DNA of 64,000 bases, from positions 35,216,001-35,280,000 of the forward strand of contig NC_091993.1 of assembly GCF_044704955.1 (NCBI RefSeq), in the 5' to 3' direction. This document shows positions 3,905-43,039 of the stretch, piece after piece; within the stretch, counting starts at the first letter, position 1, and each line of letters opens with the position of its first letter. The position numbers and the translations under genes were made by a program. The notes under the pieces were generated by a model, which saw only the letters and a program-made list of their open reading frames with translations, did no database searches and was not told the DNA's origin. The stretch comes from Pristiophorus japonicus (lineage: Eukaryota).

Positions 3905-3914
3905 GTGAATCCTT

Positions 3915-4891
3915 GGGATATTTCTCATCTACATGTTGCCCCTTGACGACATCATCCAGAAACACAGCGTCAGTTTCCACATGTACGCCGATGGCACCCA
4001 GCTCTACCTTACCACCACTTCTCTCGACCCCTCCACGGTCTCTAAATTGTCAGACTGCTTGTCCGACATCCAGTTCTGGATGAGCAGAAATTTTCTCCAA
4101 TTGAACATTGGGAAAACCGAAGCCATTGTTTTCGGTCCCTGCCACAAACTGCGTTCCCTATCCACTGACTCCATCCCTCTCCCCAACTTCTCGCTGAGGC
4201 TGAACCAGACTGTTCGCAACCTTGGTGTCATATTTGACCCTGAAATGCGTATCCACAGTATAATTAAGACCCCCTATTTCCACCTCCGTAACATCGCCCA
4301 TCTCAGCTCATCCACTGCTGAAACCCTCATCCGTGCCTGTGTTACCTCCAGACTTGACTATTCCAACTCACTCCTGGCTGGCCTCCCACATTCTACCCGA
4401 CGTAAACTTGAGGTCATCCAAAACTCGGCTGCCCGTGTCCTAACTCGCACCAAGTCCTGCTCACCCATCACCCCTGTGCTCGCTGACCTACATTGGCCCT
4501 CGGTTAAGCAAAGCCTCGGTTTCAAAATTCTCATCTTTGTTTTCAAATCGCTCCAAGGCCTAGCCCCTCCCTAACTCTAATCTCCTCCAGTCCCATAACC
4601 TCCCGAGATATCTGTGCTCCTCTAATTCTGCCCTCCTGATCATCGCTGATTATAATCACTCAACCATCGGTGGCTGTGCGTTCTTTTGCCTAGGCCCCAA
4701 ACTCTGGAACTCCCTCCCTAAACCTCTCTTTCCTCCTTCAAGATGCTCCTTAAAACCGACCGCTTTGACCACCTGCACTAATTTCTCCTTAGGCGGCTCG
4801 GTATCAAATTTTTTGTCTCATAATATTCCTGTGAAACGCCTTGGGACCCGTCACTACGTTAAAGGCGCAATGTAAATACACGTTGTTGTTG
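3915..4891 (+). mobile_element. L2-clade LINE 3' fragment
   Basis: ORF 3933-4574 has HMYADGTQLY, FLQLNIGKTE, RNLGVIFD, SRLDYSNSLLAGLP, ITPVLADLHW (L2 RT/C-terminal motifs); ends aaaggcgcaatgtaaatacacgttgttgttg. Confidence 0.9.
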
Positions 4892-7056: not shown

Positions 7057-9810
7057 AACAAAGTAAATGAGTTGACGGCACAAATCATTACAAATGGGTA
7101 CGATTTGGTGGCCATTACTGAAACGTGGTTGCAGGGTGGCCAAGACTGGGAATTAAACATACAGGGATATCTGACAATTCGGAAAGATAGACAAGATGGG
7201 AAAGGAGGTGGGGTAGCTCTGTTAATGATATCAGGGCAGTTGTGAGAGACGATATTAGCTCTAATGAACAAAATGTTGAATTATTGTGGGTGGAAATTAC
7301 AGATAGTAAGGGGAAAAAGTCACTGGTGGGCGTAGTTTATAGGCCCCCAAATAATAACTTCCCGGTGGGGCGGACAATAATCAGGGGAATAATGGAGGCA
7401 TGTGAAAAAGGAACGGCAGTAATCATGGGGGATTTTAACCTACATATCAATTGGTTAAATCAAATCGCACGGGGTAGCCTTGAGGAGGAATTCATAGAAT
7501 GCATACGGGATTGTTTCTTAGAACAGTATGTTACAGAACCTACAAGGGAGCAAGCTATCTTAGATCTGGTCCTGTGTAATGAGACAGAAATAATAAACGA
7601 TCTCCTAGTAAAAGATCATCTCGGAATGAGTGATCACAGTATGGTTGAATTTGTAATACAGATTGAGGGTGAGGAAGTAGTGTCTCAAACGAGAATACTA
7701 TGCTTAAACAAAGGGGACTACAATGGGATGAGGGCAGAATTGGCTAAAGTAGACTGGGAACACAGATTAAATGGTGGCACAATTGAGGAACAGTGGAGGA
7801 CTTTTAAGGAACTCTTTCATAGTGCTCAACAAAAATATATTCCAGTGAAAAAGGGCGGTAAGAGAAGGGAATAAAGGAGAGTATCAAATTAAAAACCAAT
7901 GCGTATAAGGTGGCCAAGGTTAGTGGGAAAATAGAAGATTGGGAAAATTTTAAACGACAGCAAAGAATGACTAAGAAAGCAATAAAGAAAGGAAAGATAG
8001 ATTACGAAGGTAAACGTGCGCAAAACATAAAAACGGATAGTAAAAGCTTTTACAGATATATAAAACGGAAAAGAGTGACTAAAGTAAATGTTGGTCCCTT
8101 AGAAGATGAGAAGGGGGATTTAATAATGGGAAATGTGGAAATGGCTGAGACCGTGAACAATTATTTTGCTTCGGTCTTCACAGTGGAAGACACAGAACCC
8201 ATGCCAGAAATTGCTGGTCACAGGAATGTGGGAAGGGAGGACCTTGAGACAAACACTATCACTAGGGGGGTAGTGCTGGACAGGCTAATGGGACTCAAGG
8301 TAGACAAGTCCCCTGGTCCTGATGAAATGCATCCCAAGCAGCTAATGTAACGCCTCTGTTTAAAAAAGGGGGCAGACAAAAGGCAGGTAACTATAGGCCG
8401 GTTAGTTTAACATCTGTAATGGGGAAAATGCTTGAAGCTATCATTAAGGAAGAAATAGCGAGACATCTAGATAGGAATAGTGCAATCAAGTAGATGCAGC
8501 ATGGATTCATGAAGGGGAAATCATGTTTAACTAATTTGCTGAAATTCTTTGAGGATATAACGAGCATGGTGGATAGAGGTGTACCGATGGATGTGGTTAT
8601 TTAGATTTCCAAAAGGCATTCGATAAGGTGCCACACAAAAGGTTACTGCAGAAGATAAAGGTACGCAGAGTCAGAGGAAATGTATTAGCATGGATAGAGA
8701 ATTGGCTGGCAGAAAGCAGAGAATCGGGATAAATGGGTCCTTTTCGGGTTGGAAATCGGTGGTTAGTGGTGTGCCGCAGGGATCAGTGCTGGGACCACAA
8801 CTGTTTATAATATATATAGATGACCTGGAAGAGGGGACAGAGTGTAGTGTAACAAAATTTGCAGATGACACAAAGATTAGTGGGAAAGCGGGTTGTGTAG
8901 AGGACACAGAGAGGCTGCAGAGAGATTTAGATAGGTTAAGCGAATGGGCTAAGGTTTGGCAGATGGAATACAATGTCGGAAATGTGAGGTCACCCACCTT
9001 GGAAAAAAAAACAGTAAAAAGGAATATTATTTGAATGAGGAGAAATTACAACATGCTGCGGTGCAGAGGGACCTCGGGGTCCTTGTGCATGAAACTCTTT
9101 TGGAGTCCTTGTGCATGAATCCCAAAAAAGTTAGTTTGCAGGTGCAGCAGATAATCAGGAAGGCGAATGGAATGTTGGCCTTCATTGCGAGAGGGATGGA
9201 GTACAAAAGCAGGGAGGTCCTGCTGCAACTGTACAGGGTATTGGTGACGCCGCACCTGGAGTACTGCGTGCAGTTTTGGTCACCTTACTTAAGGAAGGAA
9301 AAAAATTAGCTTTGGAGGGGGTACAGAGATGATTCACTAGGCTGATTCCGGAGATGAGGGGGTTACCTTATGATGATAGATTGAGTAGACTGGGTCTTTA
9401 CTCGTTGGAGTTCCGAAGGATGAGGGGTGATCTTATAGAAAATCATGAAAGGGATAGACAAGATAGAGGCAGAGAGGTTGTTTCCACTGGTCGGGGAGAC
9501 TAGAACTAGGGGGCACAGCCTCAAAATACGGGGGAGCCAATTTAAAACCGAGCTGAGAAGGAATTTCTTCTCCCAGAGGGTTGTGAATCTGTGGAATTCT
9601 CTGCCCAAGGAAGCAGTTGAGGCTAGCTCATTGAATATATTGAAATCACAGATAGATAGATTTTTAACCAATAAGGGAATTAAGGGTTATGGGGAGCGGG
9701 CGGGTAAGTGGAGCTGAGTCCACGGCCAGATCAGCCATGATCTTGTTGAATGGCGGAGCAGGCTCGAGGGGCTAGATGGCCTACTCCTGTTCCTAATTCT
9801 TATGTTCTTA
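7057..9810 (+). mobile_element. CR1 LINE ORF2 (APE to 3' tail), nested inside another CR1
   Basis: APE motifs (VGVVYRPP, IMGDFN, LDLVL, SDH), RT motifs, and 3' tail ggcctactcctgttcctaattcttatgttctta; several frameshifts and stops. Confidence 0.92.
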
Positions 9811-12580: not shown

Positions 12581-13214
12581 GAGGCAGGCACGGTAATACA
12601 GACAATGAGGTTCTGTTCGGTTTGACTGTAGGAATCCCAGACACATTATTAACTAAAATGCTTGATATCAAAAAGGACGATGGTTAGACTGGGCGAGCCT
12701 CCGTCCACAAATAAAAGTCATTTCAAATGTAAAATACAAAATTGTGAAAGTAAAATCTAATTTTGCATTTAATTACAAACTCTGACCACACTTAAATTAT
12801 ACACGATGTTCATTTTAAAGTAATATAATAGTTTCTATATTTTATACACGGGAAGGATATCAGTGAGTGCATGGCAGTTGCTGCTGAGACTGCGGCTATA
12901 ATTTGTGCCGGAGATTCACCCTGAAGCCAGAAGCAGAAGTGGGGTGAGCGAGGGAGTGCAAGAGACGGAGAGATGGATTGAGGGGGAGGGGGGGGGGGAA
13001 GAAGGATGGATGGAGGGGGATTGGATGGAGGGGAGAGGAGGATGGAAGGGAGAGAGAGGGTGGGAGGATGGATAGAGGAGGAATGAATGGAGGGGAGAGA
13101 GGGAGGGGGATGGATGGAGGGGAGACAGAGAGAGATAGAGAGGAGGAGGAGGGGGAGGGGGAGGGGGAGGGGAGGGGAGGGAGGCAGAAATATTGACGAT
13201 TTGTGATGGTCATA

Positions 13215-13277
13215 AAACTAGCAGAAGTGTGCCTGCACCATGCCATGGCTGGGTTTGGAAGAAGTGACTCAGTAGAT
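13215..13277 (-). ncRNA. MIR147: miR-147-like hairpin remnant in the C15orf48 3' UTR (degenerate)
   Basis: Minus strand ATCTACTGAGTCACTTCTTCCAAAC...TGGTGCAGGCACACTTCTGCTAG keeps the ATCTA, CAAAC and CTTCTGCTA blocks of recalled pre-miR-147b, at the expected place just after the C15orf48 stop. Seed and arm pairing are altered. Confidence 0.55.
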
Positions 13278-13310
13278 GGTTGGTGCTGTCGGGACCAATA
13301 ATTCTCTCCC

Positions 13311-13379
13311 TCATTTGTTGTAACCTTTCAGAATCTGTAACTCCTCCACAGGCTGCCACTTCTGGTTGATGGTCATAAG
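13311..13379 (-). CDS. C15orf48: C15orf48/NMES1 (COXFA4L3) last coding exon LMTINQKWQPVEELQILKGYNK*
   Basis: Acceptor cctcttgcag; matches recalled human LITINQQWKPIEELQ; TGA at 13313-13311. Confidence 0.93.
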   Translation of the reverse strand, partial: LMTINQKWQPVEELQILKGYNK

Positions 13380-13469
13380 CTGCAAGAGGAGGCACAAGGT
13401 GAGTTTTTACTGCCTCCAGGTCTCCGCCATTCATCCAAACATTTTAACAGAGAATTTTTGCCATGCATT

Positions 13470-14820
13470 CCTGGGATGCGGGTGTCGCTGGCAAGGCCAG
13501 CGTTTATTGCCCATCCCTAATTGCCCTGGTGGTGAGCCGCCTTCTTGAACCGCTGCAGTCCGTGTGGTGAAGGTGCTCCCACAGTGCTGTTAGGGAGGGA
13601 GTTCCAGGATATTGACCCAGCGACGATGAAGGAATGGCCGATATATTTCCAAGTGAGGATGGTGTGTAACTTGGAGGGGAACGTGGAGGTGGTGATGTTC
13701 CCATGCGCCTGCTGCCCTTGTCTTTCTAGGTGGTAGAGGTCGCAGGTTTGGGAGATGCTGCCGAAGAAGCCTTGGCGAGTTGCTGCAGTGCACCTTGTAG
13801 ATGGCACACACTGCAGCCACGGTGCGCCGGTGGTGGAGGGAGTGAGTGTTGAAGGTGGTGGATGGGGTGCCAATCAAGCGGCTACTTTGTCCTGGATGGT
13901 GACGAGCTTCTTGAGTGTTGTTGGAGCTGCACTCATCCAGGCAAGTGGAGAGTATTCCATCACACTCCTGACTTGTGCCTTGTAGATGGTGGAAATGCTT
14001 TGGGGAGTCAGGAAGTGAGACAGAATACCCAGCCTCTGACCCACTCTTGTAGCCACAGTATTTATGTGGCTGGTCCAGTTAAGTTTCTGGTCAATGGTGA
14101 CCCCCAGGATGTTGGTGGTGGGGGATTCGGCGATGGTGATGCCGTTGAATGTCAAGGGCCAGTGATTAGACTCTCGCTTGTTGGAGATAGTCATTGCCTG
14201 GCACTTGTCTGGCACGAATGTTACTTGGCACTTATCAGGTCAAGCCTGAATGTCGTCCAGGTCTTGCTGCATGCAGGCACGGACTGCTCCATTATCTGAG
14301 GAGTAGCAAATGGAACTGAACACTGTGCAGTCATCAGCGAACATCCCCATTTCTGACCTTATGATGGAAGGAAGGTCATTGATGAAACAGCTGAAGATGA
14401 TTGGGCCGAGGGACACTACCCTGAGGAGGGTTGGGTCGAGAGACACTGCCCTGAGGAGGATTGGGCCGAGGGTTGGGCCGAGGGACAATGCCCTGAGGAG
14501 GGTTGGGTCGATGGACACTGCCCCGAGGAGGGTTGGGCCGAGGGACAATGCACTGAGGAGGGTTGGGCCGAGGGACACTGCCCCGAGGAGGGTTGGGCCA
14601 AGGGACACTGCCCTGAGGAGGGTTGGGCCGAGGGTTAGGCTGAGGACACTACCCTGAGGGTGGTTGGGCCGAGGGACACTACCCTGAGGAGGGTTGGGCC
14701 GAGGACACTACCCTGAGCGGTTGGGCCGAGGGACACTACCCTGAGCGGTTGGGCCGAGGGACACTGCCCTGAGGAGGGTTGGGCCGAGGGACACTACCCT
14801 GAGGAACTCCTGCAGTGATT
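13470..14820 (-). mobile_element. Non-LTR LINE RT 3' half (distinct from the main CR1 family) with an internal 30-bp tandem expansion
   Basis: ITAGVPQGSV..GP, FINDLP, MFADD, LGVTIDQKLNW, YKAQVRSVMEY motifs; 3' tail ...gggcaattagggatgggcaataaa. Clade not assigned. Confidence 0.85.
14401..14805. repeat. 30-bp minisatellite (~13 units) ttgggccgagggacactRccctgaggaggg
   Basis: Direct tandem periodicity; 10-aa repeat SLGPTLLRAV in the ORF track. Confidence 0.9.
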
Positions 14821-19701: not shown

Positions 19702-19762
19702 CTTCTGGGGTGTGTTGGGGTCCACGTTCTCCCATGGAGTCGGGTTACTGGTCTTATTAATT
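19702..19762 (-). CDS. C15orf48: C15orf48 coding exon 3 (I)INKTSNPTPWENVDPNTPQK
   Basis: Acceptor ctgttgtag, donor AAG|gtaacc; 61 nt; matches recalled NPEPWETVDPTVPQK. Confidence 0.93.
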
Positions 19763-20898: not shown

Positions 20899-20987
20899 AT
20901 GACGTCGCTCTTGGTGGTGAGGAAATAGATGCAAACTGTAGTGGCTCCTGAAGCAGCAGCGGCCATGAGCGTGACCAAAGGAATGAG
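20899..20987 (-). CDS. C15orf48: C15orf48 coding exon 2 LIPLVTLMAAAASGATTVCIYFLTTKSDV (transmembrane helix)
   Basis: Acceptor tctcccctcag, donor AT|gtaagc; 89 nt; NDUFA4-family ELIPL...DV pattern. Confidence 0.93.
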
Positions 20988-23299: not shown

Positions 23300-23338
23300 C
23301 TCCTTCCTTTTCCAGAGCATTGAGAAAAAGCGCACCAT
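23300..23338 (-). CDS. C15orf48: C15orf48 first coding exon MVRFFSMLWKRKE
   Basis: ATG at 23338; donor GAG|gtgaga; 39 nt; matches recalled MSFFQLLMKRKE. Joined product is 85 aa. Confidence 0.92.
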
Positions 23339-23510
23339 CTTTTCTCGGGAAATGTCCTGGTTATTGGAAGGAAAATGGGCAATGTAGTTACACTTTAATT
23401 AATTTATTTATTACTAATTGTCTTCAGAGTAAAGTCAGTAAATTATCTGCTTTAGATTAAATTGATAATTTATAAACAGCAGGAATATTCGTAATTGTCT
23501 CAGCTCCTAC

Positions 23511-26787: not shown

Positions 26788-26940
26788 TCAGCTGAGGTCA
26801 TTTGTTGAGAATAAGTTCTGGTAGAATTCCATCTGTTGCTGGCTCAGGGAGGGTTTTACACTCTGAAGGGATTTCAGAAAGTGACGGTGATTCACAGCAG
26901 CTGCATCAAGTCCGTTTTCTTGTAGAGCCAGCAAGGCAGC
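26788..26940 (-). CDS. AFG2B: AFG2B/SPATA5L1 last exon AALLALQENG...FYQNLFSTNDLS*
   Basis: Acceptor ttttgtccccacag; 51 codons including stop; AAA C-terminal helix. Confidence 0.9.
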   Translation of the reverse strand, partial: AALLALQENGLDAAAVNHRHFLKSLQSVKPSLSQQQMEFYQNLFSTNDLS

Positions 26941-28059
26941 CTGTGGGGACAAAAGAGTCAAAATAAAGTGTTCCATGGGCAGGTGATCACAAGACGAGGG
27001 GTGGGGGAGGGAGGGGGAGTGGCAGAGGGAGTCTGGGGTCACGTGGGGAGCGACCCCGGTGTCTAGGGTCACGCTCAGACAGGCACGTGTATTGGGAGCT
27101 GCAGTTGGAGAACGGTCAGAACAATATCCCGAGGGGCAGTAGCTCAGTGCTGCCTCCTGCAGGCTATTCAGAGCAGCTGCTGCCTGTCAATCACACAAAG
27201 TGCAGCACCTGACAGATACAGTTGAGCTTGGGATCAGGATCACTGGCCACACACCTGGCAACGTCTCTCTGTCTCGGGCGTGGGGCGCTTAATACTGGGA
27301 GCAAAAGATGGGAAAGAGTTCGATTCCACACAGCCTTATTGGGCAGGAATTGAGCTGCAAGGCTGGACTTTATACAAACACCAGCACTCATTGGTAGGAG
27401 CGAGAAACAGCTGACCTTTCACCTTTCCACAGATGCTGCTTGACCGACTCGGTTTCCAGCAGTTTTTATTTCAGATTTCCAGCATTTTTCTTTTGATTTC
27501 GATACACATCAAGGCGGTTCGTAGACTGAAGCACTTCACCGGCTGGGAAATGCTGCGTGCATGATCGGTCTCATCAGTAGAGTAGCAGCAACCGATCAGT
27601 GCAATGCTGAAGATTCTGTGGGTCAGTCCCTCGGTGGAAGCGGAAGTACAAACACAAAGCCCTTGAGCAGTTCAGGTCCACGCGCAGTGCAAGTTAGCCA
27701 ACAGATTTCACTCCTATTTCTTCACAAGAATCACAAACCTGTGACAACACCCACAGTCCCCACTCTGCCTTGTGCTGCCGGTTTAACAGGGTACGTGTGG
27801 CCACAGCCTGGACCAGCCTCATCTCAACGGCGACATAAACTAATCCAGGTTTCATTATTCACTCAAACCCCCAAACTCTTCCTTCCTCCCCTTCTAAACA
27901 AAGTTCATTTTTCAGTTTTAGCCCCTTCCCTTCGAGTCCCAGTGTCTACCGGGAACTGTCTACATTCAACTGCTGCAAGGGCAGAGACTGAATAAACCCA
28001 GTCTGCTGCCCAACTCCCTGTGCAGGCACTTCAATCCTACCCTCACACCTCAAGCTCAC

Positions 28060-28182
28060 CTCTTTGCACAAATTCTGTAAATCAGCTCCAGTAAAGCCCA
28101 CCGTCTCAGCTGCCAGCTCCTCCAAGGACACATCATCCAGCGGAGTTTTGGACGTGCAGATCCTCAGTATGGAAAGTCTTGC
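28060..28182 (-). CDS. AFG2B: AFG2B exon [41 protein letters not shown]
   Basis: cag acceptor, donor GAG|gtgagc; 41 codons; AAA lid motif GFTGADL. Confidence 0.92.
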
Positions 28183-28241
28183 CTGTGTGTAATAAATGAT
28201 CAGCACAGCAGCAGCCAAACTGGACAAGCAACTATACCAAA

Positions 28242-28392
28242 AAACAGATTATCTGCTCATTATCACATTGCTGTTTGTGGGAGCTTGCTGTGCACAAATT
28301 GCCTGCTACATTACAACAGTGACTACACGTCATTGGCTGTAAAGCTCCTTGGGACGTCCCGAGGTTTTGAAAGCTGCTGACTAAACACAAGT
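28242..28392 (+). mobile_element. Deu-domain SINE 3' half
   Basis: cacattgctgtttgtgggagcttgctgtg...cattggctgtaaag, as in 51050-51230. Confidence 0.8.
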
Positions 28393-28497
28393 CAATTTTT
28401 CTTTCTTCAATAAACATCTTTACATAGATTTTTGATGGTGACATGAATACAACTTAAACCAACAATGGAATCCCTCAGACTAGTGAAGCTCGGACTA

Positions 28498-28704
<207 letters not shown>

Positions 28705-30349
28705 CTAAACAAAGGGAGAAACAATGTTCGATTATACTCAAATTGATAAAACAGTATGTGTGAATCTTCTGTTGAAATGTTAATGATTAAATGGTAATGT
28801 AGAGTGACGAGATTCTACAGCTCGCTGATGCCTGTGTGACTGAGTCTTGCATCGACAGGAAAATGACTTATTTTAGATCGACAGTGTAACACAGATTAAA
28901 CATCGGCTTCAGTTAGCTGTAGCTGTCTGTGTCAGAGGGTAACCAACACACATAACTCCCTGATTCTGTTCTATTTCAGTTGAGCGATCTCTCCAAGCTG
29001 GGCTCTCCAAGCTGGGCTCTCCTGCTTGTTCGTGGTGTCAGAGGTGAATTGTGCCAGTAGTTTGGACCACACTTTGCAGGTGTTAAAATTTACACACGAA
29101 GGGGAGGAGATGAAATTCAGTACCTCACTCAAATGGTTGGACTTTAGGTTATTTTGGAAGAGCTTGTGCAGTCTGCAGAGCAAGATCCCACAAACAGCGA
29201 TGTGATAATGTGACTGCAAGTATCTTGCCGCACTCTGTCGATGTAATTACTTCACTCGTACAGCTGAAGACGGAATGTAATGCTCGGACCATTTATTTAC
29301 TGCCTGTTGGTGTGGACAGGAGAGCGTGATGTCACGCAGGGTGTGAGATACTGGGAAAAGGATAATTCCACCCTGAGGGAGGTATAATGGAGAAGTTTTA
29401 GGTGACAGAAAGCACAGGCTGTTTATGGAAAATGACCTTTTTGTTGTGAATATAAAAGGTGCTGGGAGAGGCCTGAGTTGTAACAACTAAAACGCTTCAC
29501 GTACAAGGCACGGTTGAGTTCCTGTCGCACAGTGCATATTCTGTGTGGCATTGATGAATGGAAAGTGACAGATAAGACGCGATCAGAATACCCTGCTTCG
29601 AAGTACTACCAGGAATCTCAAATATCCATTTGCAGAGAACCTTGGCTTAACGTCGCACCCAAAGGGCAGAGGCTTTGGGCAGTGCAGCTCTCCCCCGGCT
29701 TAGATATGCTCAAGTCTTCATGTGGGACTCGAATCTGAAGCCTTTCACCCAAAGGGTGTAACTGAATGAGCCCAGCAGGTTCCTCCAGACACTCCACAGT
29801 GCTCACTGCCGACAGCGTTACCGGGGAAAACTGAATCTCGATCTGCTGCTGCCAAGGCAGGTGTGCAGCCAGGGAAGAACACGTGCCAATTTGCTCTGTA
29901 ATCGATTGGCAGAAAGAACAACTGCTGAGAGTTAATGGAGGTGAATGACTGAGAGAGACCAGGACCCACACCGTACTCCCAGTTCCCCAATCCCAACCTT
30001 TGGGAAAGCACCAGCAGTTCTGCTGTAAAACTGGGCGATAACATTACAATTTAAGAGAGAATTATCACCGAATTAAGCCTCACTGCACAGTTCCGTAGAC
30101 TTCTGATTTTCTGTTACATCTCAAGTCAGTTACAAAAGTCAGTTTTTAAAAACATTATTAAGTACCCCTTTCAGAATGAAACATCTCCAGCTATTAATTA
30201 CCTTTATGGTGAACCTGGTGCTCCAGCTAGGGGCAGGGAATGGGAAATGATTCTAAGCCCGTCTCAGTGCCAGCACCAGATATATTATGGGCTGGATTTT
30301 GAGTAGAGACCCTTTCACATCAAGTACTCACATGACGAGACACCGCAGT

Positions 30350-30520
30350 GTCAGCTGTGGCTCAGAAGGTTGTGGGTTCAAGTCGCACCCCAAGAACTTG
30401 AGCATAAAAATCCAGGCTGACACTCCAGTGCAGCGCCGAGGGAGCGCCGCACTGCCGGAGGGGGCAGCGCCGAGGGAGCGCCGCACTGCCGGAGGGGGCA
30501 GCGCCGAGGGAGCGGCGCAT
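30350..30520 (+). mobile_element. Deu-domain SINE tRNA head with ~3 copies of the 33-bp unit
   Basis: tggctcag...ggttcaagtc pol III boxes followed by gagggagcgccgcactgccggagggg repeats. Confidence 0.75.
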
Positions 30521-30843
30521 GATGCCTGTCTCTCGGTGGGAGGGGGGGAAGGGGTGGGCCTGACGGGACGCCTATGTCTCGGGGGGAGTGGGGTTTAATG
30601 GGACACCAACGTTTCGGCGGGGGGGGTGGGGGGAGGACACACACACAGGACGCCTGTGTCTCGGGGTCAGGGGATGACGGGACACACGTTTCTCTGGGTG
30701 ACCTGCTCATTAATTCAGAATTAGGGACAGTGTTTGTGTAGGTCTTTTGAGCAGTTCATTTATTCAATCAAAAACCTTTAGCCCTGGTAAGAATGAGCAC
30801 TTTCTGCGTTCAGGCCACACGCTTGGCCGATTTAATCTTTCAC

Positions 30844-31077
30844 CTTTTTTGTCTGTCCCTCGGATTGTTCTCCTTCACACTCGAGCGTTTTCTGTCCACT
30901 GCCTCTCCTCTCAGTCACTGACCGGCCAATTCCATCCATCTCATTAAGAAGAACCGACAGGACCCGCTCATGGACACTGCGGCCACTCGTAGCGTCGAGT
31001 GACCGGGATCCCAGCATGGAGTCAATCTCATCTAGGAACAGGATTGATGGAGCGGCGGCTCGAGCTTGCCGAAAAAC
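30844..31077 (-). CDS. AFG2B: AFG2B exon [20 protein letters not shown]...VLLNEMDG...GQTKK (D2 Walker B)
   Basis: Walker B ILFLDE; 78 codons; donor AAG|gtgaaa. Confidence 0.93.
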
Positions 31078-31214
31078 CTGCACTTAAAACAGACCAGTCA
31101 GTGGGGGTCGGGAATCCGGACACAACTCTACCGACTGTTACCAGGGTCTAATCATTTAGTATTTGCAAGTTCGATAGGCTAGTTAGCAGAGGATTAAAGG
31201 AGGTGCAATGTTGA

Positions 31215-31870
31215 TCACCGAGAACATACATAACATAAAAACATAATAGGAGCAGGAGTTGGCCATTCGGCCCCTCGAGCCTGCTCCACCGTTCAGTAAG
31301 ATCGTGGCTGATCTGATCATGGACTCAACTCTACTTCCATGCCCACTCCCCATAACCCCTGACTCCTTTATCATTCAAAAATCCGTCTATCTCCACCTTA
31401 AGTATATTCAAAGACCCAGCCTCCACAGCTCTCTGGGGCAGAGAATTCCAAAGATTCACGACCCCCAGAGAGGAAATTCCTCTTCGCCCCCGTTTTAAAT
31501 GGGTGACCCCTTATTCTGAAACTATGCCCCCTAGTTCTAGATTCTCCCACGAGGGAAAACATCCTCTCTGCATCTACCCTGTCGAGCCCCCTCAGAATCT
31601 TATATGTTTCAATAAGATCACCCCTCACTCTTCTAAACTCCAATGAGTATAGGCCCAACCTGCTCAACCTTTCTTCATAAGACAACCCCTTCATCTCAGG
31701 AATCAACCTCGTGAACCTTCTCTGAACTGCTCCAATGCAAGTATATTAAAAATGGAGACCAGAACTGTACGCAGCACTCCAGGTATGGAGTACAATGTGC
31801 AGTTGTAAAAGGACTTCCCTTGTTTTATACTCCAACCCCCGGCAACAAAGGCCAACATTCCATTTGCCTG
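31215..31870 (-). mobile_element. CR1 3' fragment
   Basis: ORF 31398-31706 LSYEERLSRLGLYSLEFRRVRGDLIETYK and tail. Confidence 0.88.
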
Positions 31871-32028
31871 AGCTCACGCAGACCAGATGATCAGAATATA
31901 CACAGAAACAAAATGGCAACAGACACCACTGTTGTGTTTCTGTAATTCTATATACCTGGACAGCGGTACACTGTTCAGTAAAACCTGCTTGCTGTTGAAG
32001 ACTGAATGAAGCTGCTGGAAATACACAC

Positions 32029-32238
32029 CTGAGCCAAGGCCTTTTCAGAATCGCCGACAAACGGTGAGAAGAGATCAGCTCCACTGACTGACAGGAAGGA
32101 ACAGCGGCAGCTAGAGGCCGCAGCCTTCACCAGTGTGGTCTTTGCACATCCGGGGGGTCCGTACAGGAGAATTCCCCGTGTGGGCTTCACACCCATCCTC
32201 ACAAATGCCTCCGGGAACATCATTGGCCACTCGATACT
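32029..32238 (-). CDS. AFG2B: AFG2B exon [12 protein letters not shown]...[13 protein letters not shown]...GDSEKALAQ (D2 Walker A)
   Basis: Walker A GPPGCAKT; 70 codons; cag acceptor and gtgtgt donor; position next to C15orf48 matches known SPATA5L1-C15orf48 synteny. Confidence 0.93.
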
Positions 32239-32312
32239 CTGCACAGAGAATCCCACAGTTACAAACGGCACCCTCGACTCCCTCAAACTCATTCACAGAG
32301 CAGGAGGGAATG

Positions 32313-32734
32313 NNNNNNNNNNNNNNNNNNNNNNNNNNNNNNNNNNNNNNNNNNNNNNNNNNNNNNNNNNNNNNNNNNNNNNNNNNNNNNNNNNNNNNNN
32401 NNNNNNNNNNNNNNNNNNNNNNNNNNNNNNNNNNNNNNNNNNNNNNNNNNNNNNNNNNNNNNNNNNNNNNNNNNNNNNNNNNNNNNNNNNNNNNNNNNNN
32501 NNNNNNNNNNNNGCCGGGAGGGAGGAGGAGGAGGAGGAGGAGGAGGAGGAGGAGGGAGGTGGGGCCCCGGGAGGAGAGNNNNNNNNNNNNNNNNNNNNNN
32601 NNNNNNNNNNNNNNNNNNNNNNNNNNNNNNNNNNNNNNNNNNNNNNNNNNNNNNNNNNNNNNNNNNNNNNNNNNNNNNNNNNNNNNNNNNNNNNNNNNNN
32701 NNNNNNNNNNNNNNNNNNNNNNNNNNNNNNNNNN
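32313..32734. other. Assembly gaps (N runs 32313-32512 and 32579-32734)
   Basis: N characters. Confidence 0.99.
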
Positions 32735-33605: not shown

Positions 33606-35428
33606 GAAGGAATAAGGGATGGTATCAAATTGAAAACAAGGGCATACAATGTGGCCAAGACTAGTGGGAGGCCAGAGGATTGGGAAACCTTTAAAAGCCA
33701 GCAAAGAACCACTTAAAAAATGATAGAGAGCGAAGATAGATTATGAAAGTAAACTAGCACAAAATATAAAAACAGATAGTAAGAGTTTCTACAGGTACAT
33801 AAAAAGGAAAAGAGTGGCTAAAGTAAAAATTGGTCCCCTAGAGGATGAGATTGGTGATTAAAGGCGGACAAATCCCCTGGACCTGATGGTTTACATCCTA
33901 GGGTCTTAAAAGAGATGGCTGCAGAGATAGTGGGTTGTAATTACCAAAATTCCCTTGATTCTGGGGAGGTCCCAGCAGATTGGAAAACTGCAAATGTAAC
34001 ACCCCTATTTAAAAAAGGAGGCAGACAAAAAGCAGGAAACTATAGACCAGTTAGACTAACATCTGTCGTTGGGAAAATGCTGGAGTCCATTATTAAAGAA
34101 GCAGTAGCAGGACATTTGGAAAAGCATAATTCAATCAAGCAGAGTCAGCATGAAAGGGAAATCATGTTTGAAAAATTTGCTGGAGTGCTTTGAGGATGTA
34201 ATGAGCAGGGTGGATAAAGGGGAACCAGTGGATGTGTATTTGGATTTCCAAAAGGCATTCAATAAGGTGCCACATAAAAGGTTACTGCACAAGATAAAAG
34301 TTCATGGGGTTGGGAGTAATATACTAGCATGGATAGAGGATTGGCTAACTAACAGAAAACAGAGAGTTGGGATAAATGGGTAATTTTCCGGTTGGCAAAC
34401 AATGACCAGTGGGGTGCCGCAGGGATCGGTGCTGGGGCCTCAACTATTTACAATCTATATTAATGACTTGGATGAAAGGACCAAGTGTAATGTAACCAAG
34501 TTTGCTGATGATACAAAGAGGGGTGGGAAAGGAAATTGTGAGGAGGACACAAAAAATCTGCAAAGGGATATAGACAGGCTAAGTGAGTGGGCAAAAAATT
34601 GGCAGATGGAGTATAATATGTGAAAATGTGAGGTTATTCACTTTGGCAGAAAAAATAGAAAAGCAAATTATAATTTAAATGGAGAAAAATTGTAAAGTGC
34701 TACAGTAGAGAGAGACCTGGGGGTCCTTGTGCACGAAACACAAAAAGTGAGTATGCAGGTACAGCAAGTAATCAGGAAGGCAAATGGAATGTTGCCCTTT
34801 ATTGCAAGGGGGATAGAGTATAAAAGCAGAGAAGTCCTGCTGCAACTGTACAGGGTATTGGTGAGGCCACACCTAGAGTACTGCGTACAGTTTTGGTCTC
34901 CGTATTTAAGGAAGGATATACTTGCATTGGAGGCTGTTCAGAGAAGGTTCACTAGGTTAATTCCGGAGATGAGGGGGTTGACTTATGAAGATAGGTTGAG
35001 CCTATACACATTGGAATTCAGAAGAATGAGGTGATCTTATTGAAAATGAAGTTAATGAGGGGGCTCGACAAGGTGGATGCAGGGAGGATATTTCCACTCA
35101 TAGGGAAACTAAAACGAGGGGACATAGTCTCAGAATAAGGGGCCGCCCATTTAAAACTGAGATGAGGAGGAATTTCTTCTCTCTCAGGGTTGTAAATCTG
35201 TGGAATTCTCTGCCCCAGAGAGCTGTGGAGGCTGGGTCATTGAATATATTTAAGGCGGAAATACAGATTTTTGAGCGTTAAGGGAATAAAGGATTATGGG
35301 GAGCGGGCAGGGAAGTGGAGCTGAGTCCATGATCAGATCAGCCATAATCTTATTGAATGGCGGAGCAGGCTCGAGGGACCAAATGGCCGACTGCTGCTTC
35401 TATTTCTTATGTTCTTATGTTCTTATGT
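33606..35428 (+). mobile_element. CR1 ORF2 3' portion with internal deletion and tail
   Basis: RT motifs in ORFs 33915-35034; tail ttcttatgttcttatgttcttatgtt runs into the ARPIN exon 2 acceptor. Confidence 0.92.
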
Positions 35429-35434
35429 TTGCAG

Positions 35435-35510
35435 CGGCCCCGGGGCAGTGCTGGAAGGGGAGCTGGTCGATGTGTCCCGGCACCGGATCGACGGTAGCGG
35501 AAACCGGCAG
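35435..35510 (+). CDS. ARPIN: ARPIN exon 2 GPGAVLEGELVDVSRHRIDGSGNRQ
   Basis: tttgcag acceptor, CAG|gtgagc donor; 76 nt; matches recalled GVLLEGELIDVSRH. Confidence 0.88.
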
Positions 35511-35934
35511 GTGAGCGAGGCAGAGACTGGGGGCGGGGCCAAAGGGAGGGGCGGGGACTGGGGCGGGGTGAGGTCTGTGCTGTAACCATTCTGTGATTCT
35601 GATTCTTGTCCGAATCATTCCTTTAAATGTGCCGGTTACAAACAGGAAGCTGCCTTTCCAATGCAAGTCCCACTTTCTTTTGCCTTTGAATGAAGAGGAT
35701 TCAGAGATCACCTTCCTAATGGTAAATTTCACGGCCCAGCGTCTCAAGCTGAGGAAGGTGGGAGATTCCTGTGGTTGGTGAAACTTCTGTCCTTTTGTGA
35801 GATTATTTCACTGTCTGTGACCAGGATATGTGGGCAATACTTGGGACCAGGTTACCTCCCAAAGCGCTTTATAGCCAATGAAGTATTCGTTTTCATTCAC
35901 AGGATGTGGGTGCCACTGGCAAGGCCAGCATGTG

Positions 35935-38760
35935 AACATAAGAACTAGGAGCAGGAGTTGGCCATTCGGCCTCTCGAGCTTGCTCTGCCATTCAGTAAGA
36001 TTATGGCTGATCTTCTACCTCAACTCCACTTTCCTGCACTGTCCCCATATCCCTTGCTTCCCTTACTATCCAAAAATCTATCAATCTCTGTCTTGAATAT
36101 ACTCAACGACTGAGCCTCCACAGACCTCTGGGGCAAAGAATTCCAAAGATTCACCACCCTCTGAGTGAAGAAATTCCTCCGCATCTCTGTCCTAATTAGC
36201 CGACCCCTTATCCTGAGACTGACCCCTGGTTCTAGACTCCCCAGCCCGGGGGAAATATCCTCCCTGCATCTACCCTGTCGAGCCCTATAAGCATTGTGTA
36301 TGTTTCAAAGAGATCACCTCTCATTCTTCTAAACTCTAGAGAATATCAGCCTAGTCTACTCAATCTCTCCTCAAAGGACAATCTCCCCATCCCAGGAATC
36401 AGTCTGCAGAACCTTCATTGCACTCCCTCAATGGCAAGTATATCCTTCCTTAGATAAGGAGACCAAAACTGTGCACAATACTCCAGGTGTGGTCTCACCA
36501 GGGCCCTGTGTAATTGCAGTAAGATGTCTTTACTCTTATACTCAAATCCTCTTGTAATAAAGGCCAACATACCATTTGCTTTCTTAATTGCTTGTTGTAC
36601 CTGCATATTAACTTTCAGTGCTTCGTGTACAAGGACACCCAGGTCCCTCTGAACACCGACATTTCCCAATCTCACACCATTTAAAAAAATAATCTGTTTT
36701 TCTATTTTTCCTACTAAAATGTATCCACATTATATTCCATTTGCCATGTCCTTGCCCACTCACTGAGCCTGTCTATATTCCCTTGAAGCCTCTTTGCATC
36801 CTCCTCACAACTTACATTCCCACCTAGCTTTGTATCATCAGCAAACTTCGATATATGACATTTAGTCCCCTCATCCAAATCATTGATACAGATTGTGAAT
36901 AGCTGGGGCCCAAGCACTGATCCTTGTGGTACCCAACTAGTTACAGCCTGTCAACCTGAAAATGACCTGTTTATTTCTACTCTCTGTTTTCTATCAATTA
37001 ACCAATTCTCAATCCCATGAGCCCTAATTTTGTTTAATAACCTCTTGTGTGGCACCTTATCGAATGCCTTCTGAAAATCACACACCGCATCTACTGGTTC
37101 CCCCTTATCTATTCTGCTAGTTATATCAAAAGAACTCCAACAGATTTGTCAAACATGATTTCCATTTCATAAATCTGTGTTGACTCTGCCCAATCCTATT
37201 ATTATTTTCTAAGTGCCCAGTTAGCACGTCCTTAATAATAGATTCTATCATTTTCCCTACTACTGATGTTAGGCTCACTGATCTGTAGTTCCCCATTTTC
37301 TCTCTCCCTCCTTTCTTAAATAGCGAGGTTACATTTGCTATCTTCCAATCAGCGGGAACTGTTCTGGAATCTATGGAATTTTGGAAGATGACAACCGATG
37401 CATCCCCTATGATTACTGTATTACCCTTGTTATATGCGTCTCTAATTTCCTGATTTATACTCTGCCCGACATTACAACGACTGTTTGGGGGCCCAAAGAC
37501 AACTCCCACCAATGTTTTCTGCCCCTTGCTGTTTCTTAGCTCAACCCAAACTGATTCTACTTCTTGATTTTCGGAGTTAAGATCCTTTCTCTCTCCTGTC
37601 TTTATCCCATCCTTTATTATCAGGGCTACCACTCCTCCTTTTCCATTTGCCTCTCTTCTAAAAGTTAATTATCCTGGAACATTTAGTTCCCAACCTTGGT
37701 CACTTTGCAACCACGTCTCCGCAATGGCGATTAGATCAAACATATTCATTTCTATCGGCGCTATTATTTCATCCATGCGCGAAGCATTCGCAACGGAATT
37801 CAGACACAGTGCCTTTAGGTTTGACCTTTTTCTATTTTTCCCTGATGTCACCTTAGTTAGTGATGCCCTATGACCTTTGTTACTCTCTCTGCCCATTCCT
37901 GACCCATTCTGTTTATTTTTACCCAAAACTCTGCTCCAGAGCCTTGACATTTTTCTTGCTGCTTTTAAATTTACTCTTTCCTGAATCCTCCCCCTCCCCT
38001 CCCCCCCCTTGATTATTTAAAGCTCTGTCTACTGCCCTAGTTGTTCAATTCGCCAGGACACTTGTTCCAGCCCAGTTTAAGTGGAGTCCGTCGCATCGAA
38101 ACAGCTCCCTCTTTGCCCAGAACTGGTGCCAGTGCCCCGCGAAGTGTAACCCCTGCCTCCCACACCCCTCTTTGAGCCACACATTTAACCTTCTAATCTG
38201 CTTATCCCTATGCCAATTGATGCGTGGCTTAAGTAACAATCCAGAGATTATTACCTTTTGAGGTTCTGCTTTTTGATTTGGACCCCAACTCCTCAAACTC
38301 TCTCAACAGAACATCATTCCTAGTCCTACCTATGGCGTTGATTCCTGCCTGGACCACGGCAACTGGATCCTCCCCTGCCCACTCCAAGTTCTTCTCCAGC
38401 CGTGAGGAGATGTCTTTAACCCTGGCACCGGGCAGGCAACACAACCTTCGGGACTCCCGGTCACGGCTGCAGAGAACAGTATCTGTCCCTCTGACTATCC
38501 TGTCCCCTACCACAACTACATTCCCTTTCACTCTCCCCACCATGGTGCCATGGTCCGCCTGTTCATTCATCCTGCAGGCTTTTCCCTCATCCACACAGAC
38601 AGCGAAAACCTCATACCTGTTGGATAAGGGCAAAGGCCAAGGCTCCTCCAGCACTGCACCTGGGGTCCTCTTACCTGTGACTGCCTCCTGGATCAAAGTG
38701 TCCAGGTCACTCTCTCCCTCCCTGATGCCCCATAATGTATGCACCTCAGACTCCAGCTCA
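35935..38760 (-). mobile_element. CR1 LINE with ORF1 esterase and internally deleted ORF2
   Basis: PLPLSNRY...VVVGDRIVRG...CLPGARVKD and DGLHLNW (38045-38744); APE joined directly to pre-RT in ORF 37126-37632; RT and tail follow. Confidence 0.9.
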
Positions 38761-38761
38761 G

Positions 38762-39260
38762 GAGGTAGTTCAGAGAAGGTTCACGAGGTTAATTCCTGAG
38801 ATGAAGGGTTGTCTTATGAAGAAAGGTTGAGCAGGTTGGGCCTCTATTCATTGGAGTTTAGAAGACTGAGAGGGGATCTTATTGAAATGTCTAAGATTCT
38901 GAAGGGGCTTGACAAGGTGGATGCAGAGAGGATGTTTCCCCTCATGAGGGAATCTAGAACTAGGGGCCATCGTTTCAGAATAAGGGATCGCCCATTTAAA
39001 ACGGTAATGAGGAGGAATTTCTTCTCTCAGACGATCATAAATCTGTGGAATTCTCTGCCCCAGAGAGCTGTGGAGGCTGGGTCATCGAATATATTTAAGG
39101 TGGAGATGGACGGATTTTTGAATGATAAGGGAATAAAGGGTTATGGAGAGTGGGCAGGGAAGAGGAGCTGAGGCCAAGATCAGATCAGCCATGATCTCAT
39201 TGAATGACAGAGCAGGCTCAAGGGGCCGAATTGACGACTCCTGCTCCTATTTCTTATGTT
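38762..39260 (+). mobile_element. CR1 3' fragment
   Basis: ORF 38809-39171 SYEERLSRLGLYSLEFRR...LWNSLPQ and tail. Confidence 0.9.
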
Positions 39261-39417
39261 CAGCAACTCTCAGGTGAAGTTTCTCGAACTGCAGGCACTT
39301 ACTGCAAACGTGATTGTCTGGGATCACAATGCTCCCCACAAACTCCACATGCTGCAGTTACGGCACGCCACCTGCACTGCACCATTATATGTCTTGCGCT
39401 ATATATATCCCTATATT

Positions 39418-39657
39418 CATTGCCCATCCTTAATTGCCCTTGAGCAAGTGGCAGTCAGCCGCCATTTTGGAGGGCGGGTAAGGATCAGCACAGTGCTATG
39501 GGACTGGAGTCCACCACAGGCTGGACCGGGGAAGGATGGCAGATTTACTTCCATAAATACAGTAGTTTCATGGTCACCATTACTGAGACTATTTTTCAAT
39601 TCCAGAATTATTTAATTACTACTAGTCCAGTAACATAACCACTGTGCTACCGTACCC
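39418..39657 (-). mobile_element. tRNA-derived SINE sharing its tail with the LINE at 13470-14820
   Basis: Minus head ggtagcacagtggttatgttactggactagtaa; tail caagggcaattaaggatgggcaa. Confidence 0.65.
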
Positions 39658-39697
39658 CTTTTGAAGTGTCGTCACTGTTGTAATAAATTGTACAACC

Positions 39698-39882
39698 CTC
39701 CGACAGTGCGGTGCTCCCTCAGTACTGCCCCTCCGACAGTGCGGCACTCCCTCAGTACTGCCCCTCCGACAGTGCGGCGCTCCGTCAGTACTGCCCCTCC
39801 GACAGTGCGGCGCTCCTTCAGTACTGCCCCTCCGACAGTGCAGCGCTCCCTCAGTACTGCCCCTCCGACAGTGCAGCACTCC
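39698..39882. repeat. 33-bp SINE-derived minisatellite (~5.5 units)
   Basis: Same unit as at 11570-12275. Confidence 0.9.
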
Positions 39883-39962
39883 TTGTCTACATAGCTTTTT
39901 GTTGTGTTAGTACCCAAAAATGTGTACAATTTCTATTCTTAAATTACTTGTGTTCTTTTCAG

Positions 39963-40095
39963 GATCGCTACTTCATTTTGTATATTAAACCAAGAAGAAT
40001 CCACAAAAGAAAGTTTGATTGTCATGGAGTGGAAATAGAACCAAACTTCAGTGATACAAAGAAGGTCAACACTGGCTACTTGATGTCTTCCTTCA
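39963..40095 (+). CDS. ARPIN: ARPIN exon 3 DRYFILYIKPRRIHKRKFDCHGVEIEPNFSDTKKVNTGYLMSSF
   Basis: ttttcag acceptor, A|gtgagt donor; 133 nt; matches recalled EIEPNFSATRKVNTGFLMSS. Confidence 0.95.
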
Positions 40096-40104
40096 GTGAG
40101 TAGA

Positions 40105-40350
40105 TGGAGTTAGGTCACAGGTCAGCCATGGTGTCGTGGAATGACGGGCAGGCTCGAAGGGCTGAATGGCCTTCTCCTGTTCCCATGTCACAGGCTCGAG
40201 GGGCTGAATGGGCCTCCTCCTGCTCCCGTGTAACAGGCTCGAGGGGCTGAATGGGCCTCCTCCTGCTCCCGTGTAACAGACCAGAGGGGCTGAATGGTCT
40301 CCTCCTGTTCCTGCGTAACAGGCTCGAGGGGCTGAATGGCCACCTCCTGT
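40105..40350 (+). repeat. CR1-type 3' tail amplified in tandem (~43-bp unit x5)
   Basis: aggctcgaggggctgaatggcctcctcctgYtcccgtgtaac repeated; unit equals the CR1 terminal motif. Confidence 0.8.
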
Positions 40351-40597
40351 GGGAATGGGATTGGAGGAAATTTCCTTGTTTTAGAAGTTAGTGAGGATCA
40401 TCCCACTTGAGATGTGGGGGGGTGATGGGAGATTACATTCACCTTTCAGAGATCACAGGATAATTGAAGGCCATTCAGCCCATCCAAATTCATTTGTGAA
40501 GAAAGAGGTGGGTGGATGGGGCAGTTCCGCTCCCCTTTCAGAGATGGGCCATGTCGAAGCACAGCAAACCCTCGTGAGCAGGAAGCCCAGACATGGG

Positions 40598-40972
40598 GTG
40601 TGGGCAGGGCCAGCACTTGTTGTCCGTCTCTAATTGGTCTTGAGACGATGGTGGTGAGCCGCCGCCTTGAATGGCTCACTCGGCCATTTCAGAGTCAACC
40701 ACGTTGCTGTGGGCTTGGAGTCACCTATAAGCCAGGTTGAGTAAGGACGGCAGACTTCCTTCCCTGAATGAGATTAGTGAACCAGGTGGGTTTTTAACCA
40801 CAATCCGGTGGTTTCATGGTCACCATGACGGACACTCTCTTTATTCCAGATTTATTTAATGAACTGAATTTAAATTCCCCGGCTGTCAAGGTGGGTTTTG
40901 AACTCGTGTCTCGGGATCATTAGTGCAGGCCTCTGGGTTACTGGTCCAGTGACGTTACCATTATGCTACCAT
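40598..40972 (-). mobile_element. tRNA-derived SINE (near full length) sharing its tail with the LINE at 13470-14820
   Basis: Minus-strand A box ggtagcataatgg and B box gagttcaaaacc; tail ttcaaggcggcggctcaccacc...caattag. Confidence 0.75.
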
Positions 40973-41120
40973 TCCCTGTGATTTGAGCTTGGTCACAAAA
41001 CGAGATGCAAGTAGACTGTACAGGTCGCGCACCTGCAGCTAAATGTTGAGACAAAGCAAGGGCTCCCGGTCCTGTTCCTCATTCTTATCTCGTGTTCTCG
41101 TCTGTTGCATTATGTAACAG

Positions 41121-41327
41121 AAGTGGAAGCAAAGGGACAAACGGATAAGATGTCTCTGGAAGAGCTGAAGAGGCTGATTGACAAACCAGAGCTGGTGAGA
41201 ATCTCAGACAAGTACACACCCAATCAGTGCCTGGCATTCTGGATCTCCGAGGAAGAGATGGAGAAAATTGAGCTGGAGGTCGGAGATGGATTACGTCTCA
41301 AAACCCAGGGGGACAGCCCGTTTATCC
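41121..41327 (+). CDS. ARPIN: ARPIN exon 4 (K)VEAKGQTDKMSLEELK...LRLKTQGDSPFI
   Basis: aacag acceptor, C|gtaagt donor; 207 nt; phases fit both neighbouring exons. Confidence 0.95.
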
Positions 41328-41519
41328 GTAAGTTGCAGCGTTTGGTGAATGCAGCTGGAGTCCTGGGCTTGACCTAGACTGGCTGTAAATCATTCGATGG
41401 CTTTCTTATGAAAGATAGATCTAGAATTTCTGCAGCACCTTTCACATCCTCAGGACTGTAATGTATTTGCTTCATGGGTTCTTGCTGAGCATTCATAGCG
41501 ACACATTGCTATTAATAAC

Positions 41520-42118
41520 TAATACAAAAGCAAAATACTGCGGATGCTGGAATCTGGAATAAAAACAGAGAATGCTGGAAATACTCAGCGGGTCAGGCAG
41601 CGTCTGTGGAGAGAAACGGAGTTAACGTTTCGGGTCTGTGACCCTGCGTCAGAACTGCCGAATGTTCGAAAAGAACAGATTCTTAAACACTGAAAGGGGG
41701 AGGGGAAGAACAAAAGGGAAGGTCTGTGATAGGGTGGAAAGCAGGAGAGATTAGAGAGACAAAAGGGAAGATGGGCCGAATTGAAATGCTAATGACAAAG
41801 GTTAGAAAAAGGTTAAGCTGGATAGGGCGTGAATGGCGGCGTACTGACCAACTGCCATGAGTGACAAAGAAAAAAAACTAAGATGGTGGGAGGGAGAAAG
41901 GGAGCCAAACATGGCCAGAGGTTCGGGTCTGAAAATGTTGAACTAGATGTTGAGTCCAGAGGCTGTAAAGTGCCTAAATGAAAGATGAGGTGCTGTTCCT
42001 TGAGCTTACGTGAGCTTTTTTTCTCCACTCTGTCTCTAATGGCAGCTGGTCATTACCTCGCCATTCACACCCTATTCGGATTAATCTTTTCTAACTTCTG
42101 TCATTACCATTTCAATTC
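41520..42118 (-). mobile_element. Penelope-like element remnant with an inverted terminal segment
   Basis: Minus ORF RKLKEQHLIFHLGTLQP resembles the end of a Penelope GIY-YIG ORF; aatactgcggatgctgg terminus; 42030-42118 is an inverted copy of 41778-41870. Confidence 0.7.
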
Positions 42119-42119
42119 A

Positions 42120-42940
42120 TTGAGTGAGTGCGAGGGTGGGCGGGTGAGTGAGTGAGTGAGTGAGTGAGTGAGTGAGTGAGTGCGAGAGTGGGTGAGTGAG
42201 TGAGTGCGAGGGAGGGCGGGTGAGTGCGAGGGAGGGCGGGTGAGTGCGAGGGAGGGCGGGTGAGTGCGAGGGAGGGCGGGTGAGTGCGAGGGAGGGCGGG
42301 TGAGTGCGAGGGAGGGCGGGTGAGTGCGAGGGAGGGCGGGTGAGTGCGAGGGAGTGCGAGGGAGGGCGGGTGAGTGAGTGCGAGGGAGGGCGGGTGAGTG
42401 AGTGCGAGGGAGGGCGGGTGAGTGAGTGCGAGGGAGGGCGGGTGAGTGAGTGCGAGGGAGGGCGGGTGAGTGAGTGCGAGGGAGGGCGGGTGAGTGAGTG
42501 CGAGGGAGGGTGAATGAGTGCGAGGAAGGGCGGGTGAGTGAGTGCGAGGGCGGGTGAGTGAGTGCGAGGGCGGGTGAGTGAATGAGTGCGAGGGCGGGCG
42601 GGTGAGTGAGTGCGAGGGCAGGCGAGTGAGTGCGAGGGCGGGCGGGCGGGTGAGTGAGTGCGAGGGCGGACGGGCGAGTGAGTGAGTGCGAGGGCGGGCG
42701 AGTGAGTGAGTGCGAGGGCGGACGGGCGAGTGAGTGAGTGCGAGGGCGGACGGGCGAGTGAGTGAGTGCGAGGGCGGACGGGCGAGTGAGTGAGTACGAG
42801 GGCGGGCGGGTGAGTGTGAGGTTGGGCGGGTGGGTGGGTGAGTGAGTGAGTGCGAGAGTGAGTGAGTGCGAGAGTGAGTGAGTGCGAGGGCGGGCGGGTG
42901 GGTGAGTGCGAGGGTGGGTGAGTGCGAGAGTGGGTGAGTG
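42120..42940. repeat. Compound (TGAG)n/gagggcggg minisatellite
   Basis: Blocks of 20-bp and 24-bp units (tgagtgcgagggagggcggg, with or without extra tgag). Confidence 0.92.
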
Positions 42941-43039
42941 ATCTTTCCACAACCCAAGCTGGCTCTATTTTGAAGAATTAAAAGTGTAAGCAAAGAGCAC
43001 CAAGCTGCAGCGATGGTAATGGACACCTTTGGTTTTCAG

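Follow-up and report, generated by a model that had tools for sequence, protein, structure and literature searches.

An intact C15orf48 gene and a probable decayed remnant of its Mir-147 hairpin in the sawshark Pristiophorus japonicus

Does the C15orf48 locus of the sawshark Pristiophorus japonicus still encode both halves of the switch known from human cells, where, according to the available part of PMC8035321, the peptide takes the place of NDUFA4 in complex IV and miR-147b lowers NDUFA4 mRNA? A sequence-only reading of the window (the whole stretch of 64,000 nucleotides analyzed here) had described an intact 85-aa open reading frame and, about 35 nt past its stop, a Mir-147-like sequence with an altered mature arm. 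It had left open whether the microRNA was lost or retargeted, or whether the gene was a paralogue that had lost it. Our analysis points to an intact, spliced C15orf48 gene in which positions 13273-13219 are most likely a decayed Mir-147 remnant, predicted to yield no microRNA product; we put the probability of this reading at about 0.8.

The open reading frame is indeed intact. It lies on the minus strand in four coding exons, all with GT-AG ends. The first (23300..23338) starts with an ATG at 23338 and contributes 13 codons, the second (20899..20987) encodes a hydrophobic segment and B12D positions 2-34, the third (19702..19762) covers B12D positions 34-53, and the last (13311..13379) is terminated by TGA. 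The joined translation of 85 aa is 100% identical to the UniRef entry for the P. japonicus "normal mucosa of esophagus-specific gene 1 protein" (NMES1/C15orf48). Pfam B12D was matched by exon 2 (E 3.8e-10) and exon 3 (E 9.6e-06), and the protein conforms in domain and length to the B12D peptide of roughly 83-87 aa expected of C15orf48/NMES1 orthologues. Its relatives are of the same kind: the best 120 of 540 profile matches were NMES1/C15orf48, hypothetical or unnamed proteins with about 56-78% identity, whereas NDUFA4 chains matched weakly (E 1.3e-05; PDB 5z62_N and 8ugh_4N). In a tree of 21 NMES1 rows, built without an NDUFA4 or NDUFA4L2 outgroup, the sawshark protein fell inside a 12-row elasmobranch clade (support 100/96), with an end-branch length of 0.2. 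By profile matches and tree, it is closer to NMES1 than to NDUFA4. The sawshark gene is an intact, spliced C15orf48 (NMES1/MOCCI) orthologue. A search of protein representatives with exon 2 returned three matches, one of them a fish-like NMES1 fragment with a long branch; Atlas matches to the sawshark protein stayed below 0.9, belonged to B12D, and serve as a lead only.

AAA-ATPase exons with AFG2B as best match (E 3.6e-44 and 4.3e-13) were found at 26.8-32.3 kb on the C15orf48 strand. These 3' exons of AFG2B/SPATA5L1 (26791..32292, minus strand, approximate ORF bounds) make this gene the upstream neighbour of C15orf48, with no sequence gap in between. We take human AFG2B to lie directly upstream of C15orf48 as well, and the human order to place C15orf48 between AFG2B/SPATA5L1 and SLC30A4; no SLC30A4-type match was found downstream of C15orf48 in the 59 ORFs scanned below 11.6 kb. 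The Pfam scan of the window covered 299 of its 360 unique-sequence ORFs of at least 45 aa. AFG2B matches start at about residue 478 of the human protein. The N-terminal half, not seen in the window, is expected in or near the N gaps at 32313-32512 and 32579-32734, inside a GC-rich low-complexity stretch, so that gene order across these gaps is less certain. Beyond them lie Arpin exons (35325-43257, plus strand) and then clathrin adaptor small-chain exons (51199-58478, plus strand), presumably the ARPIN-AP3S2 pair of human 15q26. Fragments of LINE-type reverse transcriptase or endonuclease occur at 3909-4571, 7191-7871, 13460-14390 and 33858-35034, one of them just within the last C15orf48 intron, and self-similar repeats make up about 47% of the window. 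In the available text of PMC8305811, SPATA5L1 figures merely as a linked eQTL gene.

The neighbourhood bears on whether this is the only copy of the switch. Mir-147 could be dead at C15orf48 and intact elsewhere, in a duplicate gene or as a moved hairpin, in which case the switch would be split rather than lost. Duplicates do arise, as the examined portion of the ncOrtho table (PMC10359484) contains extra Mir-147 copies in some mammals. Against this, AFG2B adjoins C15orf48 on the same strand, one Pristiophorus NMES1 protein appears among 16 matches and among the best 120 of 540 matches, and the genome-level searches, within the same portion of the table, list no copy in white shark or thorny skate. 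The window itself contains no match to a table-derived Mir-147 motif within three mismatches. We consider an intact second copy unlikely. The suggestion of a paralogue that had lost its microRNA likewise fits poorly with the 12-row elasmobranch clade, the adjoining AFG2B and the one Pristiophorus protein listed.

The putative 3' UTR is part of a real transcript. Contigs were examined from four of the seven runs carrying the stretch, three of them (X5, X6 and X7) being samples of a second study and the fourth (X1) possibly the source itself. In X5, X6 and X7, the fit to the window ends at 13381 and the remainder is exon 3 sequence, so that the contigs are spliced at the exon 3-4 junction; the runs are taken as RNA-like solely on account of this splicing. 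The same contigs (depths 92 to about 2,800) span the Mir-147 remnant, with zero differing letters or indels over 13170-13381. Such contigs are blind to small RNAs, transcript ends and levels, and rare variants are dropped from them. Because spliced contigs agree with the assembly at every letter, the stretch is transcribed and is not an assembly error: transcription through the Mir-147 remnant is real. An error of assembly or consensus that masks a canonical miR-147, which the sequence-only reading had kept in reserve against itself, has nothing in its favour beyond the adjacent low-complexity tract; with no differing letters in the contigs of four runs, three of them from a second study, its probability is negligible. 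That tract, rich in C and T on the minus strand (12960..13190), is where the spliced contigs stop, at its edge. An ATTAAA at 12768..12773 (minus strand), followed by U-rich sequence, is the first possible poly(A) signal downstream of the stop. At the other end of the gene, a pyrimidine stretch and an AG stand directly ahead of the ATG exon (23338-23360, minus strand), and the X5 and X6 contigs run 452 and 526 nt past the exon 3-4 junction, compared with a coding length of 189 nt; these two observations suggest that the 5' UTR is long or that a non-coding exon lies upstream.

The trace of Mir-147 itself lies about 37-91 nt past the C15orf48 stop, on the sense strand, with both arms recognizable and in order. 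The 5' (star) arm remnant (13252..13273, minus strand, as are the following elements) matches 15 of the 18 bases aligned with the chimaera row, with one gap in addition (hand alignment, 13271-13253). The former loop (13241..13251) falls about 2 nt short of the chimaera loop by hand comparison. The mature (3') arm remnant, a 22-mer at 13219..13240, matches the bird and alligator rows at 15 of 22 positions and the chimaera row at 14 of 22 (hand count); over its whole length, the remnant shares about 36 of 55 aligned bases with the chimaera row, again counted by hand. The flanking blocks that had drawn attention to the site are all present within 13277-13219, namely ATCTA at 13277-13273 (33 nt past the stop), CAAAC at 13257-13253 and CTTCTGCTA at 13227-13219; in the ncOrtho table, the alligator and bird rows end (3') in exactly the mature sequence that had been given for comparison. 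ATCTA is a flank outside the precursor rows compared, and it is conserved according to the sequence-only reading. An additional 8-nt block of the 5' arm (13267-13260) is identical to the bird and lizard rows of the same table, and the mature-arm remnant agrees with the bird and alligator rows in all of its last 9 bases. Compared with bony-vertebrate rows, three blocks (8, 5 and 9 bases) have stayed the same, while the seed and the centre are altered. The mature arm had correctly been called changed: seed positions 2 and 7 (two of seven seed bases) differ, and the conserved seed of MIR-147 is not kept.

A resemblance of this length might arise by chance in a UTR unrelated to the hairpin. For the mature arm alone, the resemblance is within chance, as 13 of 20 bases agree with the table-derived motif, the best score among 551 UTR positions, and 41 of 127,962 window positions score equally (P about 0.16). 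Rfam, which may or may not include a mir-147 model, gave 0 matches on the window, and none on 13100-13450 with E values up to 10, so that homology rests on our own counts. What argues against chance is the combination, since both arms match with the correct order, spacing, strand and gene. About 1e-5 such joint matches would be expected by chance in the putative UTR (binomial estimate, hand-counted identities), and a gapped two-arm block pattern has a single match in the 64 kb, at the remnant, with 1 of 100 shuffles yielding any match. The block pattern and the binomial features were picked after the site was seen, and the true odds are therefore less extreme. Even so, we regard chance likeness as highly improbable. 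Location (C15orf48 3' UTR, sense strand) and two-arm resemblance (hand counts, post hoc) are as in MIR-147, and homology of the 3' UTR stretch to Mir-147 is likely. A metagenome scan for intact Mir-147 loci gave three matches, without a C15orf48 exon or a 5' arm, and these were judged chance.

The hairpin is predicted to be gone. Four minus-strand windows folded no better than shuffles (z -0.44, +0.49, +0.19 and +0.51). In the ancestral register the two arms form 8 of 19 pairs, with five successive unpaired positions in the middle, and over nine shifts they form at most 9 of 19; 7.1 pairs are expected by chance (P 0.42). The chimaera row, in the matching register, has 17 of 18 pairs (hand count; P 7e-7). 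With the arms offset by one base, their duplex was computed at -4.5 kcal/mol (88% of shuffles gave a stronger one), and 0.0005 pairs are expected between them. Among sixteen 100-nt windows of the putative UTR, none contained a stem-loop of more than 15 pairs, and none had a z below -1.25; the predicted fold is a shifted 15-pair stem-loop at 13286-13235 (z between -1.25 and +0.65). By hand count, three arm changes leave their pair in the old register intact, and no change compensated on both sides was seen in the hand comparison with the chimaera row. A mature sequence paired with its star arm, as in a MIR-147 hairpin, is not found here. These numbers bear out the poor 5'-arm pairing previously noted by eye, and together with transcription of the stretch they favour the first of the earlier proposals, that the microRNA was lost. 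One of the five folds was that of the plus strand, where 13200-13290 gave a hairpin of about 52 nt (-31 kcal/mol, z -2.12, 9 of 200 shuffles); as it is on the strand opposite to C15orf48, it was set aside.

If the remnant were still processed, a microRNA with a new seed, no longer targeting NDUFA4, would result. The intact 3' end of the mature arm, the three pair-keeping arm changes, the shifted 15-pair stem-loop and the presence of the host transcript in RNA-like runs can be cited for this possibility. They are outweighed by the 8 of 19 pairs with their unpaired centre, by the weak arm duplex and by the shifted stem, which is short, interrupted and, in its z values, like the shuffles. A changed seed needs a precursor, and since none is predicted, the retargeting that had been proposed remains unsupported and is very unlikely. 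In the pairing models, the changes in the remnant have the pattern of decay and not of a seed shift under selection. With its changed seed and no predicted hairpin, the remnant should not be annotated as a microRNA gene.

The hairpin might also be dead and the kept blocks selected as single-stranded 3' UTR elements, such as binding sites for proteins or microRNAs. Substitution rates in sharks are slow, and slow substitution could leave such blocks by chance. The blocks of 8, 5 and 9 bases, unchanged next to an altered seed and centre, do fit the idea of selected elements, and human data in the accessible part of PMC8035321 give a hint of additional non-coding functions for the transcript. We give this possibility a very slim chance, and keep to a decayed Mir-147 remnant as the preferred reading.

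When would the microRNA have been lost? In the database labels, we take Sto to be the cloudy catshark, Dre the zebrafish and Sha the Tasmanian devil. The portion of MirGeneDB 2.1 examined (PMC8728216) lists Mir-147 in lamprey (Pma), chimaera (Cmi), gar (Loc), coelacanth (Lch) and Tetraodon (Tni), and marks the Sha entry "REMOVE"; its count of Mir-147 places is 0 for each of Sto, Dre and Ebu. Mir-147 is older than the bony-vertebrate framing of the sequence-only reading implied, which was too narrow in view of lamprey and chimaera. For the catshark, the portion of the supplement examined has 0 places for Sto-Mir-147 versus 36 for Sto-Mir-14x, and it has two Mir-210 entries, Sto-Mir-210-P1 and Sto-Mir-210-P2 (PMC8728216). 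Of the ncOrtho precursor rows (PMC10359484), 60 of 93 v1 and 61 of 100 v2 places were examined, the covered part ending before Rhincodon and Scyliorhinus canicula. In these, the Callorhinchus row has an intact seed and 62.1 bits, and Amblyraja (153 rows) and Carcharodon (162 rows) have no v1 or v2 Mir-147 row at their positions. The ncOrtho models are primate-trained and apply a score cutoff of 50%. Among the teleosts, four rows whose mature arm is intact passed solely with v2, at 48-51 bits; intact copies can therefore be missed. The available text of a bamboo shark liver study (PMC3789328) contains no mention of miR-147, which we count as uninformative.

Annotated NMES1 proteins are found in catshark, white shark and thorny skate, and a listed Mir-147 is absent in all three of these other elasmobranchs, as far as the examined parts of the tables go. 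In the tables, Mir-147 is present for lamprey, chimaera, gar and coelacanth and missing for the three elasmobranchs, a pattern that suggests a single old loss in the ancestor of sharks and rays. It is likely that sharks and rays lost the miR-147 half of the switch and that zebrafish lost it separately. A single loss after the chimaera split and before sharks and rays separated is the simplest account, and we find it somewhat probable. For a loss that dates back hundreds of millions of years, the kept blocks are much; they would fit equally with a loss in more recent times, or with UTR motifs that retain some role. A broader scheme, for which we see about even odds, is that all sharks and rays lost miR-147 once and kept C15orf48, and that losses recurred (elasmobranchs, zebrafish, perhaps hagfish and Tasmanian devil) where miR-210 covers the NDUFA4 site. 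Sharks and rays comprise over 1,200 species, according to the part of PMC7617448 consulted. In the examined part of ncOrtho, giant panda and owl monkey have Mir-147 rows with a changed seed; together with the removed Sha entry, these rows make further independent weakening or loss in mammals possible.

In the sawshark, a transcript without the stem would offer nothing for Drosha and Dicer to cut, and with the stem lost it would act as mRNA alone. The C15orf48 peptide would still replace NDUFA4 in complex IV. We propose this because the human peptide alone lowers NDUFA4 protein: in human cells, the drop was 61.2% with the peptide alone, 80.6% with the full transcript and 31.5% with the microRNA alone, in the available portion of PMC8035321. 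Stress induction and complex IV incorporation are known from human and mouse only, in the parts of PMC7793259, PMC8654286 and PMC8035321 at hand. Any remaining repression of NDUFA4 mRNA would be left to miR-210 under low oxygen; the NDUFA4 target site is common to miR-210 and miR-147b, in the available text of PMC7793259. PMC8654286 gives CCGCACA as a site in the NDUFA4 3' UTR.

A vertebrate clade with the peptide only, if confirmed, would mean that vertebrates can do without the microRNA over long periods, and would offer a natural comparison with chimaera. Such lineages would be natural knock-outs that part the role of the peptide from that of the microRNA, including the antiviral boost credited to miR-147b. 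A remnant that can still be read would be direct evidence for the true loss of an old microRNA family, an event that the field holds to be rare and that is often confused with missing data. The C15orf48/miR-147b system and its zebrafish loss are already known, and no new mechanism is involved. Two public tables (MirGeneDB 2.1 and ncOrtho), in the parts examined, already imply that catshark, white shark and skate lack the microRNA. The literature searched, mostly outside subscription journals and supplementary figures, yielded no published remark on a shark miR-147 loss in the text available.

Among known systems, the sawshark locus resembles human and mouse C15orf48 (NMES1, MOCCI, MISTRAV) in its B12D peptide, its four coding exons and a 3' UTR with a Mir-147-like sequence, and AFG2B/SPATA5L1 is near the gene in sawshark and in human. 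The sawshark protein belongs to the same B12D family as NDUFA4 and shares its hydrophobic segment and NPxPW motif; NDUFA4 is a distant paralogue (E about 1e-5), and for miR-147 it is a target rather than a host. For the C15orf48/miR-147b pair, PMC8654286 (in the part available) describes strong selection that has lasted more than 450 million years, and human knock-outs do not fully separate peptide and microRNA (PMC8035321, likewise). The rows examined for human, gar and chimaera have seed and stem intact, whereas the sawshark has two of seven seed bases changed and no predicted hairpin. Mir-147 of Callorhinchus milii, the closest relative for which a copy is listed, differs from the sawshark remnant in its intact seed, its 17 of 18 register pairs and its 62.1 bits. 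A parallel is zebrafish C15orf48/MISTRAV, where the peptide gene is kept and the embedded miR-147b is disrupted (PMC7793259, available part). Of the uncoupling of peptide and microRNA proposed for the sawshark, the loss is supported, and the principle is already published for zebrafish. According to the same text, zebrafish without an intact miR-147b keeps the NDUFA4 site, perhaps for miR-210. The two cases differ in their traces, as the teleost lineage has disruptive indels and the sawshark mostly substitutions and small gaps, which points to independent events.
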